In this document: piece after piece, positions 2,393-21,404 of the stretch | Layout: every line of letters begins with the position of its first letter | Position numbering within the stretch: position 1 is the first letter of the stretch | Source of the DNA: an uncultured Flavobacteriales bacterium | Lineage (GTDB): Bacteria; Bacteroidota; Bacteroidia; Flavobacteriales_D; Parvicellaceae | NCBI GenBank assembly: GCA_943788115.1 | Contig: CALSPA010000016.1 | Span: 6,001 to 70,000, forward strand | Direction: 5' to 3' | Length of the DNA stretch: 64,000 nucleotides | Translations under genes and position numbers: made by a program | The notes under the pieces: generated by a model | Told to the model about the DNA's origin: nothing | Database searches by the model: none | The model's input: only the letters and a program-made list of their open reading frames with translations

Positions 2393-4452
2393 CTACAAAA
2401 TTAAAAAATCTGTGCGTCTATTTTTAGTTCTGTTGAATTTACTGTCATTTTTAAATTTTGGAGTTAGCTCACCATAGCCTTTGAACTTCATTCTTGATGC
2501 TAGTACATTTTGATTTATCAAAAACTCCATAACAGAAAAAGCTCTGTCTTTTGAAAGAGCTAAATTATCATCTTCACCACCAACATCATCAGTATGCCCC
2601 TGTATTTCAATTTCTATATCACGATTAAGATTCAACCAAGAGGCAAATGCTTCAAGCACAAGCTCTGAAGATGGATCTATTTTTGATGAATTTGTTTCAA
2701 AAAGAATATCTTGAATAGTATGTGTACTACCCTTTTCTATATTCTTTATTTCTAATTCTTGACCTTCAATAAAAGTGACATTAGCATCTTCTTTCTTTAT
2801 CAATTTAGACTCAAATGCTTTCCCTTCCTTTTTAACTTCTAAGACCACATCCTCTTCACCACTACCAATGTTTGCAATAGCAACATAGCTTCCATCATCT
2901 TCAATATCTATTTTTTGCTCATAAGTTTCACCCGACTTAAACCTAACCTCTAACTTAGTGTCTTCTAAAGATTGTAAATCTTCAGCATCTATTTTCCCCT
3001 TCATCAGTACAACTTTATCAGGCTTAGCTTTTTCAGGCATAGAAAAATAGAATATATCCTTTCCCTCCCGCTCCTATATCTGAACGTTCAGACGAGTAAT
3101 ATGCGTACTCACCATCAGTAGTAACAATTATTGCCTCTTCATCTCCCTCTGAATTTATTGGATGGCCAATATTTTGAGGCTCCAACCATTTACCTGTCTT
3201 TTTATCTTGCTTTGTATAAAAGATATCAAACTCTCCCGCACCTAAACGATATTCTGAAACTTTAGATACAAAATACAATGTTTTACTATCGGTATGTATA
3301 AATGGAGACTTATCACTTTCAGGAGTGTTAATTGGAAATCCTATATTCTCAGCTTTCCCCCATGATCCATCAGGTTTGCCGATTAGAAAAATATATATCT
3401 ACACTGCCTTTTCCTCCTGGTCTGGCAGATGCAAAATACAATGTTTTCCCGTCTGCAGATAATGACGGCTGAGCTTCCCATGTTTGGGGTCCATTTATGT
3501 TTGGCCCTAAATTTTTTAACTCTGACCACCGTAAAACAACAGTATCTGTAAGCTCTCCTTTTTCAACAAATTCTAAATGTGAAACAAATATATCGCAGTT
3601 ATTATACGCTCCGTTTTTACTACAAGCACATATATACAATTCTTTATTATCTAATGAAATAGTAGCACCACCATATTTTGGACCAACATTGAAAGGAGCA
3701 TCCATAACTTTTCCAGAATTAAATGATTCATTAACATTTAACCTTTCACTCAAAGTGAAATCTTGCCTGAGTTGTGTTATCACGTCTCCTTTTGCTTTAT
3801 ACATGTATTCTCTAGTAAAATAAAGTAATTCGTTATCTGGGGAAATAGTTGGAAGAAATTCATTTTTAGTAGCAGTTGAAACATTTTGAAGAAGAAACGG
3901 AGTGAAATTTACAGGGTTTGAATAAAAGTCGCAATAAAATTCAGCAACTGGAAGGGTTAGCTCAACAGACGAAACTTGATCTGAATAATTTCTGGATAAT
4001 TTATCGTAATCTTCAGTTGAGAAATCTAAAAATTTTTGAAAATATTTTTTAGACTCGCAATCATTAACTTCTGAATAATAAATTAAACTTAAATAATAAT
4101 AAACATCAGCATGATAATCTGGACATATAGACTCTATTTTATGAAAATATTTTTTTGGAACATCCATTTTAGCTCCTTTTGACGAAGCCTTTCGATAGGT
4201 TAATTTAGCTAATTCCCACATGCATTGCACACAATCTTCATCAAACTCAATTGCCTCTTTAAAGAAAGAGACTCTTTCTTTATAATCGTATTTTTTTGAA
4301 TTCTTAGCCTTTTCATAGAGTTTCAAAACTTTATCGTTAGATATGTCAGAACAAATATCATCATCCTGAGCATTAACTATAAAAGCAATAAATAAAAGAA
4401 AGAAAAAAGAATAAAATTTGCACATATCAATAGGTTTGCATTTTATCCTCAC
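2393..4452 (-). pseudogene. TPR / PD40 (TolB-like beta-propeller repeat) / OmpA-domain outer-membrane protein, split into three ORFs by two +1 frameshifts
   Basis: ORF 4452->3370 carries a signal peptide, a TPR-like N-terminus and PD40 repeats, ending ...VDIYFSNRQT*. Reading continues in another frame as PDGSWGKAENIGFPINTPESDKSPFIHTDSKTLYFVS... (3278->3033). A third frame gives GAGGK|DIFYFSMPEKAKP... into the OmpA C-terminal domain (HTDDVGGEDDNLALSKDRA, NRRTDFLIL). The likely true start is MCKFYSFFF at 4425. Confidence 0.7.
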
Positions 4453-5876
4453 CGAACAACATTTAATTTATTCTCTCCTGCTGCAATTACAGTTGCAACT
4501 GTTGTATCACCAGTTACATTTACGACAGTTCTACACATATCTAGAATTCTATCTACAGGTAATATAAGAGCAACCCATTCTGCATTTAGACCGACAGATT
4601 CCAATACAATCATAAGCATTACTACTCCTGCACCAGGAACAGCCGCTGAACCTATGGAAGCTAATGTAGCGGTTATAATAATAGTGAGTTGTTGTGAAAT
4701 ATCCAATTCTACCCCAAAGTATTGAGCTAAAAAAATAGCAGCTACAGCCTGATAAAGACTTGTCCCATCCATGTTAACAGTTGCACCAATAGGTAATACA
4801 AAACTTGATATTTCTTTTGAAACTCCTAACCTATCTCTCACACACTCAATTGTAACTGGCAATGTTGCAGCACTAGAGCTTGTAGAAAATGCTAAAAATT
4901 GAGCAGGAGAAATTCTTTTAAAAAAACTGGAGTAACTTATTTTTTTTCTTGTAAAAATAATGACAAGCATAGGGTAAAAAATAAAAGCCATAAAGAACAA
5001 ACCACCAAGAACGACTAAGCAATAAGCACCTAATGAGTAAAAGACTTCAAAAAGAATTGAAGGGTCGTCTTTAGCAATTTCAGAAAGTTTTCCAGCTAAA
5101 AGAGCAAATACAAAAAATGGAGCTGCTTTCATTATCAAGTCAACCATCTTTAAGAAAACATCATTCAACCCATCAATCAATACATTTACTGGGTCTGCTT
5201 TCTCTTTTGGGATCAATAACAACATAGCTCCAAAAAATGCCGCAAAAAATATTATTTGAAGCATTGACTTCAAATTGGTTAATGATTCAAAAATATTTGA
5301 AGGAACTATATCAACTAAAAATTGTAGCGGCCTAGCACCTTTTTGCTTATTAACATTTTCTTTTCTTGACAGCAAAGATTGATTGTTATCAAATTCAGTT
5401 TTTCGTCTATCAAATTTCTTTTTTGCATTTTCAATTAACAAACTATTATTTGGATCATTAAGAAATGATATTCCATCTTTAATTTCGTTACCAGATTCAT
5501 TACACCACAACTCATATTGAATTCTATTTTCAATTTTTTGTTGTTCAGAAATAGTGTTTCCAGGTTTAAAAATATTTACTAAAGAAAGTCCTACAGAAAC
5601 TGCGATAACGGTTGTAATGACATAAATACCCAAAGTTTTAAAACCTAACTTACCAAGCTTAGATATATCTGCTAATTCAGAAACACCTTTAATTAAAGAA
5701 AAAAGAACAATTGGAACTGCTATCATTTTTAGCAGCTTTATAAAAATTTTGCCAAAAGGATCAATCCAATCAAGTGTAAAATCACTCCAACCTAAGAAAG
5801 ATGAAGTTATTGCCCAAAAAACTCCTAGAACTAGTCCTATAATAATTTGCCAATGAATAGGTATTTTACTTTTCAT
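4449..5876 (-). CDS. dicarboxylate/amino acid:cation symporter (DAACS/GltP family)
   Basis: SSSAATLPVT, GATVNMDGTSLYQ and VDRILDMCRTVVNVTGD are hallmark DAACS motifs. The protein has multiple TM segments. Confidence 0.85.
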   Translation of the reverse strand: MKSKIPIHWQIIIGLVLGVFWAITSSFLGWSDFTLDWIDPFGKIFIKLLKMIAVPIVLFSLIKGVSELADISKLGKLGFKTLGIYVITTVIAVSVGLSLVNIFKPGNTISEQQKIENRIQYELWCNESGNEIKDGISFLNDPNNSLLIENAKKKFDRRKTEFDNNQSLLSRKENVNKQKGARPLQFLVDIVPSNIFESLTNLKSMLQIIFFAAFFGAMLLLIPKEKADPVNVLIDGLNDVFLKMVDLIMKAAPFFVFALLAGKLSEIAKDDPSILFEVFYSLGAYCLVVLGGLFFMAFIFYPMLVIIFTRKKISYSSFFKRISPAQFLAFSTSSSAATLPVTIECVRDRLGVSKEISSFVLPIGATVNMDGTSLYQAVAAIFLAQYFGVELDISQQLTIIITATLASIGSAAVPGAGVVMLMIVLESVGLNAEWVALILPVDRILDMCRTVVNVTGDTTVATVIAAGENKLNVVR

Positions 5877-5953
5877 TTTTTAGATTTTATCCATTTATTA
5901 AGTAAAAATAACATTAGTGATTAATTAAACAAATACTGTGCCTTGTTGAAAAA

Positions 5954-6670
5954 CTAATTAATTAATTTCTCACACTGAGTATCTACATGAGACTTAAGAG
6001 AATCTATGTATTTAGAATTTAAAACTAACAACTTGATAGAAAGCATTTTCTTTAGCTCGAGGTTATAAACCTCTACAGACAATGCAGATGGATTTATCAC
6101 ATATGGCGAGCATAGTATTTGTTTTTTCAAATTAAACACATCTTGTTCAGAAAGATGATTTTTAAGCTCATATTTGAGATTAATTAGCATGCTTTTTCCA
6201 ATAGTTGGAATTGAGACTTTCTGGGTAAACAAACTTACGTAAGGAAATTGAAAAATCTTCCCAGCCTCTGACTCTACTTCCATTTTTGTGTTTTTCAGTG
6301 AAACTATTAACCCTGAAAATTCATTAATGGTGATTTGCGAACCGTAAACATTTCCATTTTGAATTTTATATAATATGCCATAAATTAAATTAATTATAGA
6401 TTTCCAGAAAATCAACATTAAAAAAACAAATGTAATTGCAGCCAATATAACATTGACATTTACTAAATATGAAAAAATATAGAACGCATAAAAAAACCAA
6501 AATATATTTCTAGCTATAGGTATATAAAAAGTTAATCTTTTCTTCAATTTAAGATCTCTTAAAAACTTAACAAGATATTCCCTTGAAAACCAAAAAAAGA
6601 ATACAAAAAATGTAATCTCAAAAATTATTTTGAAAATTATAAATAGAGATATGTGTTGATAATCATTCAA
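5954..6670 (-). CDS. membrane protein with an MscS-like TM3/beta-domain signature
   Basis: Three to four N-terminal TM helices are followed by IINLIYGILYKIQNGNVYGSQITINEFSGLIVSLKNTKMEVESEAGKIFQFPYVSL. This aligns by eye to the E. coli MscS segment [56 protein letters not shown]. The start overlaps the stop of the upstream giant gene by 4 nt. Confidence 0.4.
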   Translation of the reverse strand: MNDYQHISLFIIFKIIFEITFFVFFFWFSREYLVKFLRDLKLKKRLTFYIPIARNIFWFFYAFYIFSYLVNVNVILAAITFVFLMLIFWKSIINLIYGILYKIQNGNVYGSQITINEFSGLIVSLKNTKMEVESEAGKIFQFPYVSLFTQKVSIPTIGKSMLINLKYELKNHLSEQDVFNLKKQILCSPYVINPSALSVEVYNLELKKMLSIKLLVLNSKYIDSLKSHVDTQCEKLIN

Positions 6671-9600
6671 AATAATAGTTTTTTATCATATAAATATTGA
6701 ATAACAAAAGGTTGCAAATAAGGGTTAATTGTTAGAACACCATGATCAGAATCTAATAACTTTGATCTTACAAGTGAGCCAACATTTTCATTTATTTGTT
6801 CATTTGAATAGTCACTAAAAACAACAAATAAATCTTTAATATTAATTGATTTATGAATAACAACCTGCAGTAAAATTAAATCCCAATCGGTACTAAGGAC
6901 ATCAGGAATATTTTTTTGTTTAAAATATGAAATCTCAATGTTGTTATCGTTGAAATCTGTAATTGAAGCCATCCAATTTAAAGAAGCCCATTTAATATTA
7001 CCATGAGAAATACGATTAAGCTTTGAAAAAAAACGATTAAAGTGTCGCTTAGATGAATTAAAGGATGATTTATTTTTCCAGTTAAAAATTACACCACCAA
7101 TATTATTTTTTTCTATAATGTTTTTCTGGATTTCAAAAGTATTTAATGGCTGAATAAAAACAGTTGAAAAAATTAAATTACTGGATGATTTCACCTGATT
7201 AATTAATTTCAAAAAATGCAAATTACATTCAATAATGAACAATATATCTTTTGAAAAATTAGAGAAAATATTTTCCCATTCATTTAAAATATTAAATCCA
7301 TCTTCTGTTCGCATCCACCATGACTCATAATCTTCAATAAAAACTATAGGCTGATTCTCTAGAGAAGATAATATTTCAGTATTAGAGCCTTTAAGATTAG
7401 TAGCTAATTTTAAGGATTGATTAATTAAAGAAGCGCCATCACTATTAAACGAAACATTCGGTTTAATTTTATAAACTTCATGCTTGTCATTCAAGCAATT
7501 TAAAACATTATTTACTAAAAAACTTTTGCCCGAACCGGATTCACCTGCAACAAAAACAACACTTGGATTACCTTTTTTAAAATCAGCAATTACATTATTC
7601 ACCTGATTAAATTCTGAATGTCTGTTTTCTAAAGGTTCTGATGGTGAGACATGTTTACCTATAAAAAGCTGTTTGTAGTAAAATGGAAGCTGATTAATTA
7701 TTGAAGAATTAGGTAGAACCTCATCACTAAATTTTTTTAAAATAGAAATAGGGGTTTCTACAGATTTTTCTTTATTAAAATATTTAGAAAAAGTCAAATA
7801 ATCTTGAACTTGAATAAAAAGATCATCTGTTTTAGAATATTTTGATTTAACATAATCAGATAATAAATTAAATTTACGCGTGAAGAAACCTTTATTTTTT
7901 TCATTTGTAACACTAGAGTGATGGTTCTTTGCTCTTTCAATCACTACATCCTCTACAAAAACATCTTCAATTAAATCGAATATCTTATTGAATTCTATTA
8001 AAAATCGTTCATTGATAGTATCCAATTTAGACTCACAATTTAATAAAGCAATTGAAGACTTATCAACTACATCTTTAAGAAGGCTATCATCAGCCTGATT
8101 TATGATTGTGAATTTATTTAGCTCTAATGCATTTTCTAAAATTTGAAGCTCATTAATTACCTGTCGTTTTGTTTCATCAAAGAGAAGGTCTACATTTTCT
8201 AAAATTTGATTATCAAACAAATTCTCAACAACAGTCGCTAAATCTATTTTAATAGTTGGTACCTTGCTTTGAGATTGAACAAACGACCCAACACCATCAG
8301 TTGCAATTGTTTCAGAGTCAAAAGAAAGATTTTCTATTTGCGCTTTAACATGTTTCCTTAAATCAAATAATTCATCTTTAACATTAAAGCTTAAAGTTAA
8401 TTTCTCAATTTTTTTCAATGAAGATTCAAGTTTACTAACATTCAACTTATCAACATCTTTACCAATCTCTTTAATTACTCTAGCTGGCTGATTAAAATGA
8501 GCTTTAAGAAACAACTCCTCTTTGGTCTTTAAAAAAGGAACTACACCTAATCTAAAACCTTTCATGTCGACAAAAGTGATTAATTGGTTTAATATCAAGC
8601 CTTGATTAACGCCAAATAAAAAGGGATACTCTTTAACCTTATCTATTTTACTAGTCAATTTAAAGGAATAGTATTCCTCTTGCCTATATGTAATCAAAGA
8701 TTTAACATCCAATCGAACACTATCATCAACAACATTATTTACAAAATCATTTGTAAGTGAAAAAAGTTTACCTAAAAATTTAGTTTGTTCCTTCTCTAAA
8801 GAATTTTCAATTTCAGCTAACAATTCAGCAGTTGAAAAATCTTGCTTAAACTCAAAACTTGTTTCATCAGGAATATTTAATATCTCTTTTAATTTTTCAT
8901 TTAATAAGAAACCAGAAACACCTAAACTTTTAATCAATGTATTAAAATCATCTAGATAACTATTTTCAAAATGAAATGATGCCAATTCTTTCACACCTAC
9001 ATAATAAGGAGCTAATTCATTACCTTTTTTAATTCTCCTTCTGTATCTAGCTTTAATTCTTGCTATCAATCTAGAGTCTGTTTTTCTAGCTTGAATTTCA
9101 TTCTCAAAAATAGGAATTGCTATTTCAGTAGGTAATTTATCAATTAAACTTTCGACTGATTCTATATAGTCAGCAAGTGAAGCTACCAAAGCAAGTTGCA
9201 ATTTATTAATTCTATTCTCCTTAAAGTATTCTACATGCTTAGTTACATCAGAGTAGAATTTCAACAAGTCATCTTTATTTGAGCTACTTGTCATGCGATT
9301 TACCAAAAGGTTTGAGAAACTTATATAATTATCTGAAAAGGCTCCATACAACCTAGAACTAAAATCTAAGCTGTATTGGTTTAATTTTTCATCTAGATCT
9401 AGCATTAATTTATCTAAATCATAAATGCTAGTTTTTTTAATTTGTAAATCATTGTATGAAACATATTCTTTTAATTCTACAGATTCTTTATAAACCTCGC
9501 CCAACTTAGAATGTTGATAATCTTCTTCAACAAAACTACTAGATGCTTTAAGTATTAATGTAGTACCCATAACATCCATCAATGAATTTGTAGATTCAAC

Positions 9601-11682
9601 ATATTCCTTTTCAGAATGGTTATTAATCTCAGGCAAATTCATCATTATTAAATCTGCTTCATGACTATACAATTGAATTAGTTTATATAATGGCTTTTTC
9701 TCCAGTTCATTACCAATTATTTCAAATGAAATATCAATTCTTAATTTTTCTAATTTCCTAGAAATTACATCTTCGACTAAAGCTTGATTTTCGTTTAAAT
9801 CATTTACAAATAAAATTCGAATATTAGCACTAGACCATTCAGCAGAATGAAGGATTAATTTAGAGAGCTGTAAAGAAAGGTCACTTTCACTATTTATTGA
9901 GGACCACCAAATATCAATTTTCTTATAATTTCCAAACCCTCTTTTTTTGTCGTAATCTAAAAACAAAATATTGTAATCTAGCTGAGTAAGTTTCTGAGTC
10001 ATTTGTGCAAACCATAGAGGGTCAACAGTGTTCCTTGCCCAACCCATAAGAACTGTATTAGGGTCAATTCCAGAAAACCCATATGTATTGGCAATTGTCT
10101 CGATTCCTTTAAAAATATTTTGACAATAAAGTCTTCTGTGAAAAATAGATTCATCAATATCATCATCAGCAATTGTTTGATGATGTTTTGGAAAAAGAAT
10201 TGTTGCTGATTTCTCTTCAATTAAATCAAAATTTGATACCATTCCATTTCTACCACTAATAGATTTGCTCATTTCTATCAGATGAGGCCTTTCTTTAGTT
10301 GCTCCACTAAATAATAAAATATTGGGCTGCCAGTTTCTCTTGTGAGCAGATTTCTTGTATAAATTTCTAAGGCCGATCTTAACAACATTTGACCAAACAC
10401 TTAGCCATACATCACCAGACCCTAAAACTAATTCTTTACGGGTTAACCAAAAGAAAATTAAAATCATGATAACAACAGCTAATAAAGTTGCTCCTAAGTT
10501 TAATTGCACCATTAAAAGAAATGTGGTAATAGCGCCAACAAAAGATACCCATAAAGGAATTTTCAATTTCGGTCTAAAATCTGGGCTTGCCCACTGCTCT
10601 AAAAAACAAGAAATATTTATAAATAAATACGCAGCCATATAAAACATAGCTACTATTTCAGCAATTACATTTAATTCACCTATTAATATCCCTAATTCAG
10701 AAATAATAAAAGTTAGGATTAATGCATTTCTAGGCTCATTGTTAACACCATGACCAACAGCAAAAATTTTAGGCGCTATGTTATCTAAAGACATTGCTTG
10801 TAGAATTCTTGGGCCACCTAGTATACCACCTAATGCAGATGAAAGTGTAGCTCCCCAAACACCAGCAACAACCAAAAATGCAATTGAGCCAAATTCAATG
10901 AGAACATTATTGTTTGTAGTTAAAACCTCTTTATCTATAGAGGCATTAAGGAAAAATGCTAATGCTAAATAAACTATTAGCCCTGTAACAATGGCTAACA
11001 TAGTTCCCCAAGGAATAGATTTACTGGGGTTTTTAAGATCTCCGCTCATAGCTACACCAGCTGTGAAACCAGTAACCGCAGGAAAGAAAATTCCAAATAA
11101 AACAGCAAAATTTGGGTTTGTAACTAGATCTGTTCCCTTTTTAAGTCCATCACTAGAACCTGTGAAAATTGAAATTAAAGAAAGGCCAATAAGTACAAGA
11201 ATCACATATTGAATCTTAATTGCAAAACTAGTGCTTACATAAGCAACAAATAAAACCACCATTAAAGCAATTGATCCTACAATTCTAAAATGATTTGTGG
11301 TTATCTCTTGAATACCAAAAATATCTTGAATAACTGGCAACATACTTTCTGCAAAACCAATTAAATAGAGTGAAATACTTAGAGCTGTTGCTACAAAAAG
11401 AGTAATGCCAATAGCCCCACCTATAGGAAACCCAAGTGACCTAGTTAACATGTAATAAATACCACCAGCTTTTATTTTTTTGTCTGTGGCAATAGATGAA
11501 ACACTAAATCCTGTAGTAATTGAAATAACGTGGGCAAATAAAATTATAGCTACAAACATGAAAATACTTGAGGAATTCCCAATTACGGTACCTAGCCTCA
11601 TGTACATAATTACTCCTAGTATTGTAAGTACAGATGGGGTAAAGACACCACCAAACGTTCCAAATTTCTTTTGTAGATTCAT
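6667..11682 (-). CDS. SLC12-type cation-chloride cotransporter fused to a ~620-aa helical region and a C-terminal P-loop (AAA_16/ORC-like) ATPase
   Basis: Uninterrupted 1671-codon ORF. The N-terminus has FGTFGGVFTPSVLTILGVIMYMRLG plus ~12 TM segments (APC fold). The SLC12 cytoplasmic domain motifs are NWQPNILLFSG, GIDPNTVLMGWA and IDIWW. The C-terminal part has Walker A VFVAGESGSGKSFLV (nt ~7523-7549) and Walker B PIVFIEDYE. Confidence 0.8.
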   Translation of the reverse strand: MNLQKKFGTFGGVFTPSVLTILGVIMYMRLGTVIGNSSSIFMFVAIILFAHVISITTGFSVSSIATDKKIKAGGIYYMLTRSLGFPIGGAIGITLFVATALSISLYLIGFAESMLPVIQDIFGIQEITTNHFRIVGSIALMVVLFVAYVSTSFAIKIQYVILVLIGLSLISIFTGSSDGLKKGTDLVTNPNFAVLFGIFFPAVTGFTAGVAMSGDLKNPSKSIPWGTMLAIVTGLIVYLALAFFLNASIDKEVLTTNNNVLIEFGSIAFLVVAGVWGATLSSALGGILGGPRILQAMSLDNIAPKIFAVGHGVNNEPRNALILTFIISELGILIGELNVIAEIVAMFYMAAYLFINISCFLEQWASPDFRPKLKIPLWVSFVGAITTFLLMVQLNLGATLLAVVIMILIFFWLTRKELVLGSGDVWLSVWSNVVKIGLRNLYKKSAHKRNWQPNILLFSGATKERPHLIEMSKSISGRNGMVSNFDLIEEKSATILFPKHHQTIADDDIDESIFHRRLYCQNIFKGIETIANTYGFSGIDPNTVLMGWARNTVDPLWFAQMTQKLTQLDYNILFLDYDKKRGFGNYKKIDIWWSSINSESDLSLQLSKLILHSAEWSSANIRILFVNDLNENQALVEDVISRKLEKLRIDISFEIIGNELEKKPLYKLIQLYSHEADLIMMNLPEINNHSEKEYVESTNSLMDVMGTTLILKASSSFVEEDYQHSKLGEVYKESVELKEYVSYNDLQIKKTSIYDLDKLMLDLDEKLNQYSLDFSSRLYGAFSDNYISFSNLLVNRMTSSSNKDDLLKFYSDVTKHVEYFKENRINKLQLALVASLADYIESVESLIDKLPTEIAIPIFENEIQARKTDSRLIARIKARYRRRIKKGNELAPYYVGVKELASFHFENSYLDDFNTLIKSLGVSGFLLNEKLKEILNIPDETSFEFKQDFSTAELLAEIENSLEKEQTKFLGKLFSLTNDFVNNVVDDSVRLDVKSLITYRQEEYYSFKLTSKIDKVKEYPFLFGVNQGLILNQLITFVDMKGFRLGVVPFLKTKEELFLKAHFNQPARVIKEIGKDVDKLNVSKLESSLKKIEKLTLSFNVKDELFDLRKHVKAQIENLSFDSETIATDGVGSFVQSQSKVPTIKIDLATVVENLFDNQILENVDLLFDETKRQVINELQILENALELNKFTIINQADDSLLKDVVDKSSIALLNCESKLDTINERFLIEFNKIFDLIEDVFVEDVVIERAKNHHSSVTNEKNKGFFTRKFNLLSDYVKSKYSKTDDLFIQVQDYLTFSKYFNKEKSVETPISILKKFSDEVLPNSSIINQLPFYYKQLFIGKHVSPSEPLENRHSEFNQVNNVIADFKKGNPSVVFVAGESGSGKSFLVNNVLNCLNDKHEVYKIKPNVSFNSDGASLINQSLKLATNLKGSNTEILSSLENQPIVFIEDYESWWMRTEDGFNILNEWENIFSNFSKDILFIIECNLHFLKLINQVKSSSNLIFSTVFIQPLNTFEIQKNIIEKNNIGGVIFNWKNKSSFNSSKRHFNRFFSKLNRISHGNIKWASLNWMASITDFNDNNIEISYFKQKNIPDVLSTDWDLILLQVVIHKSINIKDLFVVFSDYSNEQINENVGSLVRSKLLDSDHGVLTINPYLQPFVIQYLYDKKLLF

Positions 11683-11765
11683 CTATTCAAATATATCAGA
11701 TAAAGTCAAGCATATAATAAATATGCTAAAAAGGATTTAATAATTTTGTAATAAGTTTATTAAAA

Positions 11766-12824
11766 ATGATAAAGAATCTAAAAATTATTGAAATATCTTC
11801 AGTTTTAGCTGGTCCATCAGTAGGAATGTTTTTTGCAGAGTTAGGTGCTGAGGTAATAAAAATTGAAAACAAAATTACTGATGGTGACATTACAAGAAAA
11901 TGGCATCAACCAATGGAAAATAGTGAAAAGCAATCAGCATATTTTTCAAGTGCAAATTGGGGGAAAAAACATATTTTCCTTGATTTCAACAATTCCTCGG
12001 ACAAAAAAAAACTAATTAATCTTGTAAAAGTTACAGATATTTTAATCACAAATTTCAAACATGGAGATGCTGAGAAATTTAATTTAACTTATAAATTCTG
12101 TAAGTCAATAAATGATAAAATTATATATGCCAAAATAGAAGGGTTTAAAACCGATCCAAAAAGAGTTGCTTTTGATGCCATTATACAAGCAGAGACAGGT
12201 TTCATGTCAATAAACGGAGAAAGTGGTGAGCAAGGTGTTAAAATGCCTGTCGCAATGATGGATATTTTAGCTGCTCATCAGCTAAAAGAAGGGGTTTTAA
12301 TAGCTCTATTAAAAAGAAAAGAAAACAATAAGGCATATTGTGTATCTACTACACTTGAAGAAACTGGATACGCATCATTAGCAAATCAAGCTTCAAATTA
12401 TTTAATGACTAATGTTGTTCCAAAAAAAATGGGATCGCTTCACCCAAACATTGCCCCATATGGTGAGAAAGTAATTACAAAAGATAAAGTATCATTTTTA
12501 TTAGCAATAGGAACAGATAAGCAATTTCTTAGATTCTCATCTTTTATAGGATTATCAAAAAAATCTATATCTGAGAACAAAAGCAATAAGAAAAGAGTTT
12601 TAAATAGAGCGGAACTTATTAAGAAAATTCAAAAAAGAGTATCTCAAATTTCTGCAAATGAATTTTCAACTAATTGCATAAAATTAAATATCCCTATTGG
12701 TAAAATAAATACGATAGAGAATGTTTTTGAAAACAATGTTGCTCGAAACATGATTTTAGAAGAAAACGTAAATGGCCAAATCACTAAAAGAGTTTCAGGA
12801 ATAGCCTTTAAAATCACCAATTAA
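11766..12824 (+). CDS. CoA-transferase family III (CaiB/BaiF-type)
   Basis: N-terminal IIEISSVLAGPSVGMFFAELGAEVIKIE is the family III CoA-transferase signature. A TAATTTTG -7-like box lies at 11741-11748. Confidence 0.8.
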   Translation: MIKNLKIIEISSVLAGPSVGMFFAELGAEVIKIENKITDGDITRKWHQPMENSEKQSAYFSSANWGKKHIFLDFNNSSDKKKLINLVKVTDILITNFKHGDAEKFNLTYKFCKSINDKIIYAKIEGFKTDPKRVAFDAIIQAETGFMSINGESGEQGVKMPVAMMDILAAHQLKEGVLIALLKRKENNKAYCVSTTLEETGYASLANQASNYLMTNVVPKKMGSLHPNIAPYGEKVITKDKVSFLLAIGTDKQFLRFSSFIGLSKKSISENKSNKKRVLNRAELIKKIQKRVSQISANEFSTNCIKLNIPIGKINTIENVFENNVARNMILEENVNGQITKRVSGIAFKITN

Positions 12825-12839
12825 TTTTGCTGTAATATT

Positions 12840-13397
12840 TTATTTTACAGCTACTATTCTTAGCATTTTATTCATCTCAATTGCAAGCTTTTTCGAATCC
12901 GCAGAATCAAGCTGAACTCCTACGTATAAACTATTCTTGGAAGATTTAACATTAATCACTCCATTTCCTATTAACCAAAATGAATCATTAAAAACTTTAT
13001 TTACTGAATCATCTTTTAAAGCAACAGGACTTATATCAATTATTTGATTAGAATTTAAATAATTTGCTTTTCCATATCCATTAATTGATTTTTTATGAGT
13101 AAATCGATCAGAATCAATTTTAATAAACTCGACACCAGAAACTCTCCACATATAGGCTTTAAATATTCTGATTTCCAAATAAATCCAAAATACAACAAGA
13201 ACAGCTAAAATAACTTTCTCCTGAGATGAAACACCGCCACCAAACAAATAATATAAAAATGCAGCACCACAAAACGACCAGCAAATTAACCATATTAGCA
13301 TAGCGTTTTCTTTCCATTTTTCTATTTTAGAAGAAATAATAATGGTGAAAAAATCTTCATGTTTTTCAAATGAAACACGATTACCTATTTTTTTCAT
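12840..13397 (-). CDS. hypothetical membrane protein
   Basis: 185-codon ORF with two central TM helices (MLIWLICWSFCGAAFLYYLF, VILAVLVVFWIYL). No family recognised. Confidence 0.45.
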   Translation of the reverse strand: MKKIGNRVSFEKHEDFFTIIISSKIEKWKENAMLIWLICWSFCGAAFLYYLFGGGVSSQEKVILAVLVVFWIYLEIRIFKAYMWRVSGVEFIKIDSDRFTHKKSINGYGKANYLNSNQIIDISPVALKDDSVNKVFNDSFWLIGNGVINVKSSKNSLYVGVQLDSADSKKLAIEMNKMLRIVAVK

Positions 13398-13543
13398 ATG
13401 TTACTTTTAGTTGAATACGTTTCTATTTATTTCAAAATAAATAATATTAATTGAGATAAATAAGAATTTATCTAATTTGTCTAAGCTACAATATTTTGTA
13501 TTTTAGGCATGGATTTTGAATTCGACATTGAAATGAATAGTTT

Positions 13544-14329
13544 ATGAAGCGTATTTTAAAATTTATTTCCCTTATTTTCATCTATACACATCTTATAGCT
13601 CCAACCCAAGCTACTAGTCAAGAAGATTTTATGGATTTACTATTGCTCTACGTTGACGAGAAATACGATGTTTGTTTTCACAAAGCAATAAAATACACCG
13701 AAAAAGATAAAACAAAAAAACATCCTCTTCCCTACCTATACTGCTCAATGGCTTCTTTTGAAATGAGTCAAGATCACAAGTACACAAACATGTACCCAAA
13801 AGCATTTAAAAGTTCGTTGTCTTACCTTTCGAAATATAGAAAAAAAGACAAAGGCTTTGAATACAAAGACGATTCTGAAGATTTCATTGAAAAGATTAAA
13901 ATGATAATAGCCGAAGAAATAGAAAATTACATGACTGAAGGCACCGAATCAACATATGGAAAAGCAGCAGGAATAACCAAGAAAATTTGCTCTATTGACC
14001 CTAATGATTACGGCAGTAAACTTCTCTATGGTCATTTATGTAATTTAACAAAGAATAGAGCTACTGCAAAAGAATACATTAAACCTAGTTTAATATTTAT
14101 AGATTCTATTCCAGATAAAAAATTCACTTTTAAAACCATGACTTTTTCACAGCAACATTACTTAAAGTTTGCGCTAATAGAAATGGCAAAATATCAAAAA
14201 AATAAAAATTTAATTTCGGCTCAAACTACGCTAAACTTAGGGAAAGAGCTTTTTTATATTAAAAGAGATGATTGCAAGTTGGAAGACAATGGTGATTTCA
14301 TTACTCTATATGATGAAGTTTTTAAGTAA
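13544..14329 (+). CDS. hypothetical secreted protein
   Basis: ATG start with signal-peptide-like N-terminus (ILKFISLIFIYTHLIAPTQA). No family recognised. Confidence 0.45.
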   Translation: MKRILKFISLIFIYTHLIAPTQATSQEDFMDLLLLYVDEKYDVCFHKAIKYTEKDKTKKHPLPYLYCSMASFEMSQDHKYTNMYPKAFKSSLSYLSKYRKKDKGFEYKDDSEDFIEKIKMIIAEEIENYMTEGTESTYGKAAGITKKICSIDPNDYGSKLLYGHLCNLTKNRATAKEYIKPSLIFIDSIPDKKFTFKTMTFSQQHYLKFALIEMAKYQKNKNLISAQTTLNLGKELFYIKRDDCKLEDNGDFITLYDEVFK

Positions 14330-21327: not shown

Positions 21328-21404
21328 TGGCGGACCGGACGGGACTCGAACCCGCGACCCCCTGCGTGACAGGCAGGTATTCTAACCAACTGAACTACCG
21401 GTCC
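21328..21404 (-). tRNA. trnD: tRNA-Asp (anticodon GTC), CCA encoded
   Basis: The reverse complement reads GGACCGGTAGTTCAGTTGGTTAGAATACCTGCCTGTCACGCAGGGGGTCGCGGGTTCGAGTCCCGTCCGGTCCGCCA. It folds as a cloverleaf with anticodon loop CTGTCAC and is near-identical to canonical bacterial tRNA-Asp. Confidence 0.95.

Follow-up and report, generated by a model that had tools for sequence, protein, structure and literature searches.

In an uncultured Flavobacteriales bacterium (GTDB family Parvicellaceae; GenBank assembly GCA_943788115.1), a single gene joins a cation-chloride cotransporter (CCC) of the SLC12 family to a long helical region and a putative AAA+/winged-helix module, and is followed immediately by a gene for an MscS-family protein. 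We examined this gene pair in a window of 64,000 nucleotides, the whole stretch of DNA that was analysed, which corresponds to positions 6,001 to 70,000 of contig CALSPA010000016.1. The fusion gene lies on the minus strand at 6667..11682 and consists of one uninterrupted open reading frame (ORF) of 1671 amino acids (aa) with an ATG start. The GC content around this ORF is 25-34%, and a first-pass annotation, made from the sequence alone, had argued that a 5-kb ORF in such AT-rich DNA cannot be due to chance. Our own estimate agrees: at base frequencies of 0.36 each for A and T and 0.14 each for G and C, some 8.3% of random codons would be stops and the probability of 1671 stop-free codons is about 1e-63. 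All of the motifs quoted in the first-pass annotation were located in the translation, with FGTFGGVFTPSVLTILGVIMYMRLG at residues 7-31, NWQPNILLFSG, GIDPNTVLMGWA, IDIWW and DLIMMNLP within residues 450-685, and the stretch LILLQVVIHKS...LVRSKLLD...INPYLQPFVIQYL at the C terminus. The 1671-aa ORF is real and the proposed domain anatomy is supported throughout. The protein extends 956 residues beyond the transporter (residues 716-1671, referred to here as the tail). A scan with a profile of this tail, covering one genome per species, detected 141 loci, of which 80 were retrieved and form the basis of the locus counts given below.

Residues 1-715 are a genuine SLC12 member by every sequence test. 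The membrane domain, of the APC fold, occupies residues 1-470 (10273..11682, minus strand as for all parts of the fusion gene) and the SLC12 cytoplasmic C-terminal domain residues 471-715 (9538..10272), which is how the two regions had been read from their motifs. Pfam AA_permease matches residues 13-414 with an E value of 4e-38 and a score of 131.6 bits (cut-off 24.6), NCBIfam TIGR00930 covers residues 5-551 (2e-109) and Pfam SLC12 (PF03522) matches residues 587-680 (1.2e-7; 31.6 bits against a cut-off of 27). The best matches among solved structures were human NKCC1 (E 1e-73) and KCC1-4 (E 1e-70), with values of 1e-73 to 1e-69 over the NKCC1 and KCC structures, and the alignments with NKCC1 and the KCCs span both the membrane domain and the cytoplasmic domain, to about residue 700. 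A normal bacterial CCC was expected to stop near residue 715, and this is what we found: ordinary Bacteroidota CCCs, which are abundant, are 723-742 aa in length, are 51-52% identical to residues 1-715 and end some 10-30 residues further on. These unfused proteins of ~730 aa are named in the source databases either "Na-K-Cl cotransporter" or "amino acid permease." Six residues of the fusion protein, Y106, P201, T204, S281, S282 and Y352, align with Y383, P496, T499, S613, S614 and Y686 of NKCC1, and are kept in 58-60 of 60 full-length family members. In the published NKCC1 structures, Y383, P496 and T499 belong to the K+ site, S613 and S614 to the Na+ site and Y686 to a Cl- site. The Ser-Ser pair is typical of Na+-coupled CCCs and is absent from KCCs; its conservation here (S281 and S282) leads us to predict Na+/K+/Cl- symport.

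Beyond the transporter, residues 716-1325 (7708..9537) form a long region that is all helical in AlphaFold models. A word-indexed protein search for relatives of the tail yielded 11 proteins only, and the models of the whole tail and of the middle region were both built from nine sequences. The whole-tail model has a mean predicted local distance difference test score (pLDDT) of 65.7 and a predicted template modelling score (pTM) of 0.38, with tail residues ~39-607 appearing as long helices; a separate model of the middle region (pLDDT 65, pTM 0.53) contains helices only. No match to this region was obtained in Pfam, NCBIfam or PADLOC scans. Comparison of a profile of the region with PDB sequences gave nothing significant, the faint matches being to apolipoprotein-like and designed helical proteins (E 0.02-0.2), and a Foldseek comparison of the model with the PDB gave no match at E<=1e-3 and only generic helical bundles. 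This is consistent with the earlier description of ~620 helical residues devoid of any recognisable motif.

The remainder of the tail had been described as a P-loop module with Walker A and B motifs, of ORC/AAA_16 type and dissimilar to transport ATPases, ending in a winged helix. Walker A is GESGSGKS at residues 1380-1387 (7522..7545) and Walker B is IVFIEDYE at residues 1446-1453 (7324..7347), which is followed by WW and aligns with VDELDLLW of ORC1. Both motifs are conserved in the 60 full-length sequences: for Walker A the two glycines are present in all 60, the lysine in 55 and the S/T in 59, while for Walker B D1451 is present in 59 and E1453 in all 60. In the five members without the Walker A lysine, it is replaced by L, R, Y or M and the rest of the module is conserved (examples are GEPLSGLT in L009, GEQNSGRT in L024 and GNALSGYN in L026); these losses hint that hydrolysis may be dispensable in some lineages. 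The motif LPFYYKQLF, just before the ATPase at residues 1332-1340 (7663..7689), is the most conserved pre-ATPase stretch: its P, Y, L and F do not vary among 36 diverse tails or among 28 ATPase modules. It was the search pattern that recovered the 141 genome loci. An alignment of 28 modules further revealed an R-x-x-E helix before Walker A, consensus sequences of LPFYYxQLF, GExxSGK[ST] for Walker A and hhhhDDLELWW for Walker B, a sensor-1-like N, a lid motif P..A.ELK..I..RH.SGG, the sequence GN[IV]G.AL..W and a winged-helix motif L.Q..LHKRL. In this alignment no invariant arginine that could serve as an arginine finger was found between the sensor-1-like N and the lid. By motif reading, GN[IV]G sits at the apparent position of the GDAR sensor-2 arginine motif of Cdc6, a replacement that would be more in keeping with a slow switch than with a motor. 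Within the tail, conservation is highest in the ATPase module.

In the AlphaFold model the end of the tail consists of an alpha/beta P-loop domain and helical lid (residues 1352-1585; 6928..7629), then a C-terminal winged helix with the order helix-helix-helix-strand-strand (residues 1598-1666; 6685..6891), at a pLDDT that is mostly 70-89. The top Foldseek matches in the PDB were archaeal Orc1/Cdc6 proteins (1w5t at 2.8e-7 with a probability of 1.0, 1fnn and 2qby), followed by ORC and Cdc6 subunits from Drosophila, human and yeast and by two archaeal AAA+ ATPases (2fna and 2qen). These matches have E values of 3e-7 to 1e-5, target-normalised template modelling scores of 0.43-0.51 and ~390 aligned columns, almost the full length of the 350-400-residue Orc1/Cdc6 chains, so that base, lid and winged helix are all covered. 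The STAND proteins CED-4, Apaf-1 and plant NLRs rank after the ORC/Cdc6 set. Sequence profiles gave weaker matches: Pfam AAA_16 at residues 1354-1401 (E 1.9e-6; 28.9 bits, below the gathering score of 32.6), NCBIfam TIGR02928 for orc1/cdc6 (E 0.0015; 17.5 bits against a cut-off of 181.3), ClpC (1.5e-3), ORC4 (0.011), ORC1 (0.015), Cdc6 2qby_A (0.019) and, for the last domain, the archaeal winged helix-turn-helix (wHTH) regulator 2d1h (E 0.002). Hence, the ORC/Cdc6 assignment rests on the fold comparison: as modelled, the module folds like an Orc1/Cdc6-type AAA+ protein but fails the curated models, and so is not filed as a member. The earlier reading as ORC-like thus holds at the level of the modelled fold and the winged helix is supported, but the AAA_16 label falls short of its threshold. 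A transport ATPase was rejected, as the module has neither an ABC nor a P-type signature. We also rejected a STAND protein with C-terminal sensor repeats, as the protein ends ~5 residues after the winged helix and the scores for the NB-ARC, NACHT and nSTAND Pfam domains are negligible (E 0.03-0.17; 12-15 bits against cut-offs of 23-34).

The second gene of the pair, which was missed in the first-pass annotation, overlaps the fusion gene and is its one conserved partner. It encodes 238 aa at 5954..6670 on the minus strand; the gene begins with TTG and overlaps the TGA stop of the fusion gene by 4 nt. The copy in the window on its own gave no Pfam hit. A profile of 26 partner proteins matched MscK (7uw5) at 4.7e-15 and residues 30-240 of Escherichia coli MscS at 3.9e-13, an alignment that spans the membrane helices, the beta domain and the alpha/beta domain, and PF00924 matches 23 of the 26; the partner is therefore an MscS-family protein. 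A homologue occurs immediately downstream and on the same strand in 56 of the 63 loci that have a downstream ORF, and often overlaps the fusion gene or starts within 40 nt of it. By profile, homologues were found in 64 of the 80 loci, most of the others stopping at a contig edge. When all flanking ORFs were clustered, this gene, present in 61 loci, was the sole neighbour conserved across taxa, the next clusters reflecting lineage-restricted synteny.

The fusion is neither confined to this genome nor rare. One uninterrupted ORF of 1600-1816 aa, mostly 1650-1740, is present in 59 of the 80 loci, and each of these ORFs matches the transporter membrane domain, the SLC12 C-domain and the ATPase tail. 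The sequence of the transporter-tail junction is conserved, and a protein search with the tail recovered five metagenome proteins of 1658-1672 aa with 27-91% tail identity. An exhaustive search with the tail profile yielded 2601 clusters, built at 50% identity, with E<=1e-3; of these, 1765 reach E<=1e-10 and 550 reach E<=1e-30. The hosts are mainly Bacteroidota (Flavobacteriales, Saprospiraceae, Bacteroidales, Prolixibacteraceae and Marinilabiliales), with others among metagenome-assembled genomes (MAGs) of Myxococcota, Marinimicrobia, Calditrichia, Chlorobiota and Melioribacteraceae. At least one carrier, Fulvivirga marina 29W222, is cultured, which makes experiments feasible. Database names for the fusion proteins are "amino acid permease" or "hypothetical protein," and neither full-text searches nor reviews revealed a description of a CCC-tail fusion. 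The earlier remark that no such transporter-ATPase fusion was known accordingly agrees with these searches, but the architecture itself, with 141 genome loci, is not rare. The family is widespread yet uncharacterised, and is built from known parts.

Some loci depart from the common arrangement. In four MAG loci (L013, L017, L018 and L058) the transporter and tail lie in different frames or an early stop is present, leaving pieces of 1198, 559, 1246 and 610 aa with CCC-coding sequence just upstream; these may be sequencing frameshifts, pseudogenes or genuine splits. MAG JAOZMB01 (Bacteroidales GMC2.metabat2.30) has two paralogous fusion genes of 1669 and 1731 aa (L057 and L069), both without an MscS-like gene downstream despite 5-9 kb of flank. 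A typical 1718-aa member (L072; contig CAYMYI010000020) was found in a MAG labelled uncultured Roseobacteraceae, an alphaproteobacterium, although almost every other host belongs to the Bacteroidota and allied groups; it could be a mis-binned contig or a horizontal transfer.

Every part of the fusion protein is under purifying selection. In comparison with the closest relative, L001, the ratio of nonsynonymous to synonymous substitution rates (dN/dS) is lowest in the transporter, at 0.018 in the membrane domain and 0.023 in the SLC12 C-domain. It reaches 0.12 in the helical region and 0.10 in the ATPase plus winged helix, the tail evolving ~5-fold faster than the transporter. As to whether the fusion arose once or several times, a crude neighbour-joining tree with 60 fused CCC domains and 81 that appeared unfused, some of these being probably truncated calls, failed to set the two classes apart.

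The tail also occurs without the transporter. At two loci, L042 (944-969 aa) and L045 (924 aa), the tail protein has a soluble N terminus, the upstream gene is on the opposite strand, no CCC is present anywhere in the locus and an MscS-like gene lies directly downstream. Of the 150 best cluster representatives in the exhaustive search, 76 are full-length fusions and ~25 are proteins of 900-985 aa that start with M, lack a CCC and match from the first residues of the tail. By contrast, two unfused CCCs of ~730 aa, one in a cultured Pareuzebyella and another present on many contigs, lack an MscS-like neighbour. The MscS link thus follows the tail and not the transporter, and the channel, more than the transporter, may be the most constant partner of the tail.

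In the window, the MscS-like gene is followed directly by genes for a sodium:dicarboxylate symporter of the SDF family (4449..5876), a protein with PD40 repeats (3370..4452) and a member of the OmpA family (2393..3040), all on the minus strand. This block (2393-5876) is syntenic in close Flavobacteriales relatives only; ORFs of OmpA/PD40 type recur near the fusion gene, on either side, in 18 loci, which is probably a generic feature of Bacteroidota. The upstream flank comprises a divergent gene for a family III CoA-transferase, two ORFs without Pfam hits, a dethiobiotin synthetase-like AAA_26 gene (bioD) and a class I/II aminotransferase gene. The two ORFs lie at 12840-14329 between the CoA-transferase and the biotin-related genes, encode 185 aa (minus strand) and 261 aa (plus strand, with a signal-peptide-like start) and are both found in the same nine related loci. 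Each of the flanking genes is syntenic in 7-11 related loci over which tail identity ranges from 90% down to ~22%, which is consistent with long vertical inheritance at one chromosomal position and speaks against a mobile island. The fusion gene and the divergent CoA-transferase gene are separated by 83 nt (11683-11765), a stretch that contains TATATTTG only 5 nt upstream of the ATG. This sequence fits TAnnTTTG, the Bacteroidota -7 promoter consensus; if it is a promoter, the leader would be very short or absent. When 5700..12000 was scanned for promoters and terminators, sigma-70-like sites proved less numerous than in shuffled sequence and none of the terminators was convincing, a result that carries little information because the promoter consensus of Bacteroidota is a different one. 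The only tRNA in the 64 kb, and the only Rfam family, is a tRNA-Asp (GTC) at 21328-21404 on the minus strand. No replication gene occurs in the genomic context of the pair. A PADLOC search of the pair gave no significant match, the only hit being mads_8 over 40 residues of the P-loop (E 0.0039, 14.8 bits) and nothing for the MscS-like protein.

Our results lead us to propose, tentatively and at a little short of an even chance, that the two genes form an osmotic or ion-homeostasis unit of pump and valve under the control of a nucleotide switch. The first gene would provide an NKCC-like importer that brings in salt as Na+, K+ and Cl-, with its SLC12 cytoplasmic domain running into an arm of ~600 helical residues and an Orc1/Cdc6-like AAA+/winged-helix module. 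The second gene, which may be translationally coupled to the first, would provide an MscS-type release channel. Nucleotide would be bound by the AAA+ module, which is envisaged as a slow conformational switch rather than a motor, and the state of the switch would be relayed through the helical arm to the C-terminal regulatory domain of the CCC and to the cytoplasmic face of the MscS-like channel. Joint control of salt uptake and solute release could then avoid a futile cycle. A more pointed form of this proposal is that the arm and AAA+ module are a new cytoplasmic gatekeeper that directly controls both an MscS-type channel and a Na-K-Cl transporter by nucleotide state; we consider this possible but doubtful. 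If true, it would be the first AAA+-regulated pair of ion channel and transporter, and a bacterial counterpart of the kinase-based control of cell volume through eukaryotic CCCs.

Several points weigh against a nucleotide-switched unit. The AAA+ assignment is derived from a model of medium confidence (pLDDT 66, pTM 0.38, nine aligned sequences) and the AAA+ sequence matches of the tail all fall under family thresholds. The loss of the Walker A lysine in 5 of the 60 members, together with GN[IV]G in place of GDAR, suggests that hydrolysis may be weak or dispensable. A winged helix of the Orc1/Cdc6 lineage could bind DNA instead. At six or seven loci there is no MscS gene despite at least 1.4 kb of downstream sequence. 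The partner may also not be a conventional channel, as its predicted pore helix has bulky hydrophobic residues where E. coli MscS has the Gly/Ala-rich GAAGLVVGLALQG; in the alignment with E. coli MscS, the Gly/Ala-rich pattern that lines the pore in transmembrane helix 3a was not found in the partner family. Finally, the substrates and direction of transport, the binding of ATP, the contact between tail and channel and the regulatory logic of the unit are predictions.

It is conceivable, although unlikely, that the tail is a passive scaffold, in which the arm and a largely vestigial ATPase hold the transporter and channel in position or gather them together, such as at a pole or within a complex, and no nucleotide switching takes place. 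A middle of ~600 residues of long helices without an enzymatic motif is what a scaffold might look like, and the absence of the Walker A lysine from five members, the lack of a clearly conserved arginine finger or sensor-2 arginine in the alignment and the ~5-fold faster divergence of the tail can all be read in the same way. However, across phyla there is little or no variation in the Walker A glycines, the D and E of Walker B and the sensor-1-like N, which is hard to explain without nucleotide binding, and it is the ATPase module that is best conserved within the tail.

A role in anti-phage defence or abortive infection appears quite improbable. An ORC/STAND-like NTPase would then sense infection and open or misdirect the CCC and MscS-like proteins as effectors, leading to collapse of ion gradients. 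The layout of an ATPase followed by a winged helix also matches the STAND proteins CED-4, Apaf-1 and plant NLRs, Pfam yields faint matches to BrxC/D and to nSTAND families and PADLOC a weak one to mads_8 (E 0.004), and the tail evolves quickly. Pairs of genes for an NTPase and a membrane protein are common among defence systems, and the tail-only form with its MscS-like gene is such a pair. Against this, no PADLOC match is significant, and the genes hold one conserved chromosomal position among housekeeping genes in 7-11 loci, over tail identities of 90% to ~22%, with no mobile-element or defence gene conserved nearby. Tail identity drops with taxonomic distance, as fits vertical descent. Moreover, the transporter has a dN/dS of 0.02 and keeps every ion-coupling residue, which a suicide effector would not need.

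Very improbable, in our judgement, is a membrane-tethered regulator that binds DNA through its AAA+/winged-helix module and uses the transporter as a sensor of ions or flux, in order to control transcription or anchor the chromosome. The idea of a transporter used as a membrane-anchored sensor, raised in the first-pass annotation, is of this type; the best fold matches are the DNA-binding initiators Orc1/Cdc6, and the winged helix resembles archaeal wHTH regulators (2d1h, E 0.002). However, the constant partner is a channel gene and not a regulon, the tail-only forms, which have no membrane sensor, still keep the MscS gene, and no DNA-related gene is conserved in the neighbourhood; in addition, the winged helix of ORC/Cdc6 also mediates protein contacts. 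Lastly, we attach next to no probability to an indel in sequencing or assembly having falsely joined a CCC gene of ~730 aa to a separate gene of ~950 aa and consider such an artefact excluded for the family, for although both halves exist separately elsewhere, as unfused CCCs and tail-only proteins, and the four MAG loci noted above carry the two parts in different frames, the 59 single ORFs come from independent assemblies of different projects and phyla, the five metagenome proteins agree with them and the junction is conserved.

The proposed pump-and-valve unit resembles several known systems in part. CCCs of the SLC12 family, namely NKCC1 (SLC12A2), the KCCs and the bacterial proteins of ~730 aa, share with the fusion protein the APC fold of 12 transmembrane helices followed by an alpha/beta cytoplasmic domain, but end without the 956-residue tail, and the two unfused relatives examined lack the MscS-like gene in their operons. 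In eukaryotic CCCs, control is exerted through WNK-SPAK phosphorylation of the termini; the fusion instead appears to have a nucleotide-binding-type module attached. The tail shares with Orc1/Cdc6, ORC, 2fna and 2qen the AAA+ base, lid and winged helix (E 3e-7), the R-x-x-E helix before Walker A, a Walker B that aligns with the DELD of ORC1 and a P..xELxxIxxR lid motif. It differs in being only 12-14% identical, in scoring below the AAA_16 and TIGR02928 cut-offs, in carrying GN[IV]G at the apparent GDAR position of Cdc6, and in being tethered to a transporter or paired with a channel gene, with no replication context. STAND/AAA_16 NTPases such as MalT, Apaf-1, CED-4 and the NLRs likewise have a P-loop NTPase and then a winged helix, but in the tail no sensor repeats, nor anything else, follow the winged helix, and the large helical region is on the N-terminal side. 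The partner resembles MscS, MscK and YnaI over the range of the profile (MscS residues 30-240) but is very divergent, lacks the Gly/Ala-rich pore pattern and is always encoded after a helical-ATPase protein. By function only, the closest parallels are Trk/Ktr with RCK rings and OpuA with CBS domains, in which ion or osmolyte transport is nucleotide controlled; as in the unit proposed here, a cytoplasmic nucleotide module controls a transporter that is not itself ATP driven. Unlike these, the fusion has an AAA+/ORC-like fold, a helical arm of 600 residues and a link to a release channel. We know of no case of AAA+-controlled ion transport, of none linking a CCC to an MscS channel, and of no dedicated cytoplasmic ATPase regulator for MscS channels.

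In summary, an NKCC-like importer is physically joined to an ORC/Cdc6-like module in hundreds of bacterial lineages, mostly Bacteroidota, nearly always with an MscS-like gene alongside, and the pair of putative switch and channel also exists without the transporter. Current annotation as "amino acid permease" or "hypothetical protein" conceals this arrangement of transporter, switch and channel. CCCs are central to the control of cell volume in animals, with their prokaryotic relatives being almost unstudied, and MscS channels are the textbook emergency valves of bacteria; the fusion and its MscS-type gene suggest a new form of control of salt and water balance in bacteria. If the switch does control both uptake and release, this would constitute a new principle of bacterial osmoregulation and a new role for the Orc1/Cdc6 branch of the AAA+ family, and would offer a tractable bacterial model for how regulatory signals are transmitted through the C-domain of CCCs.

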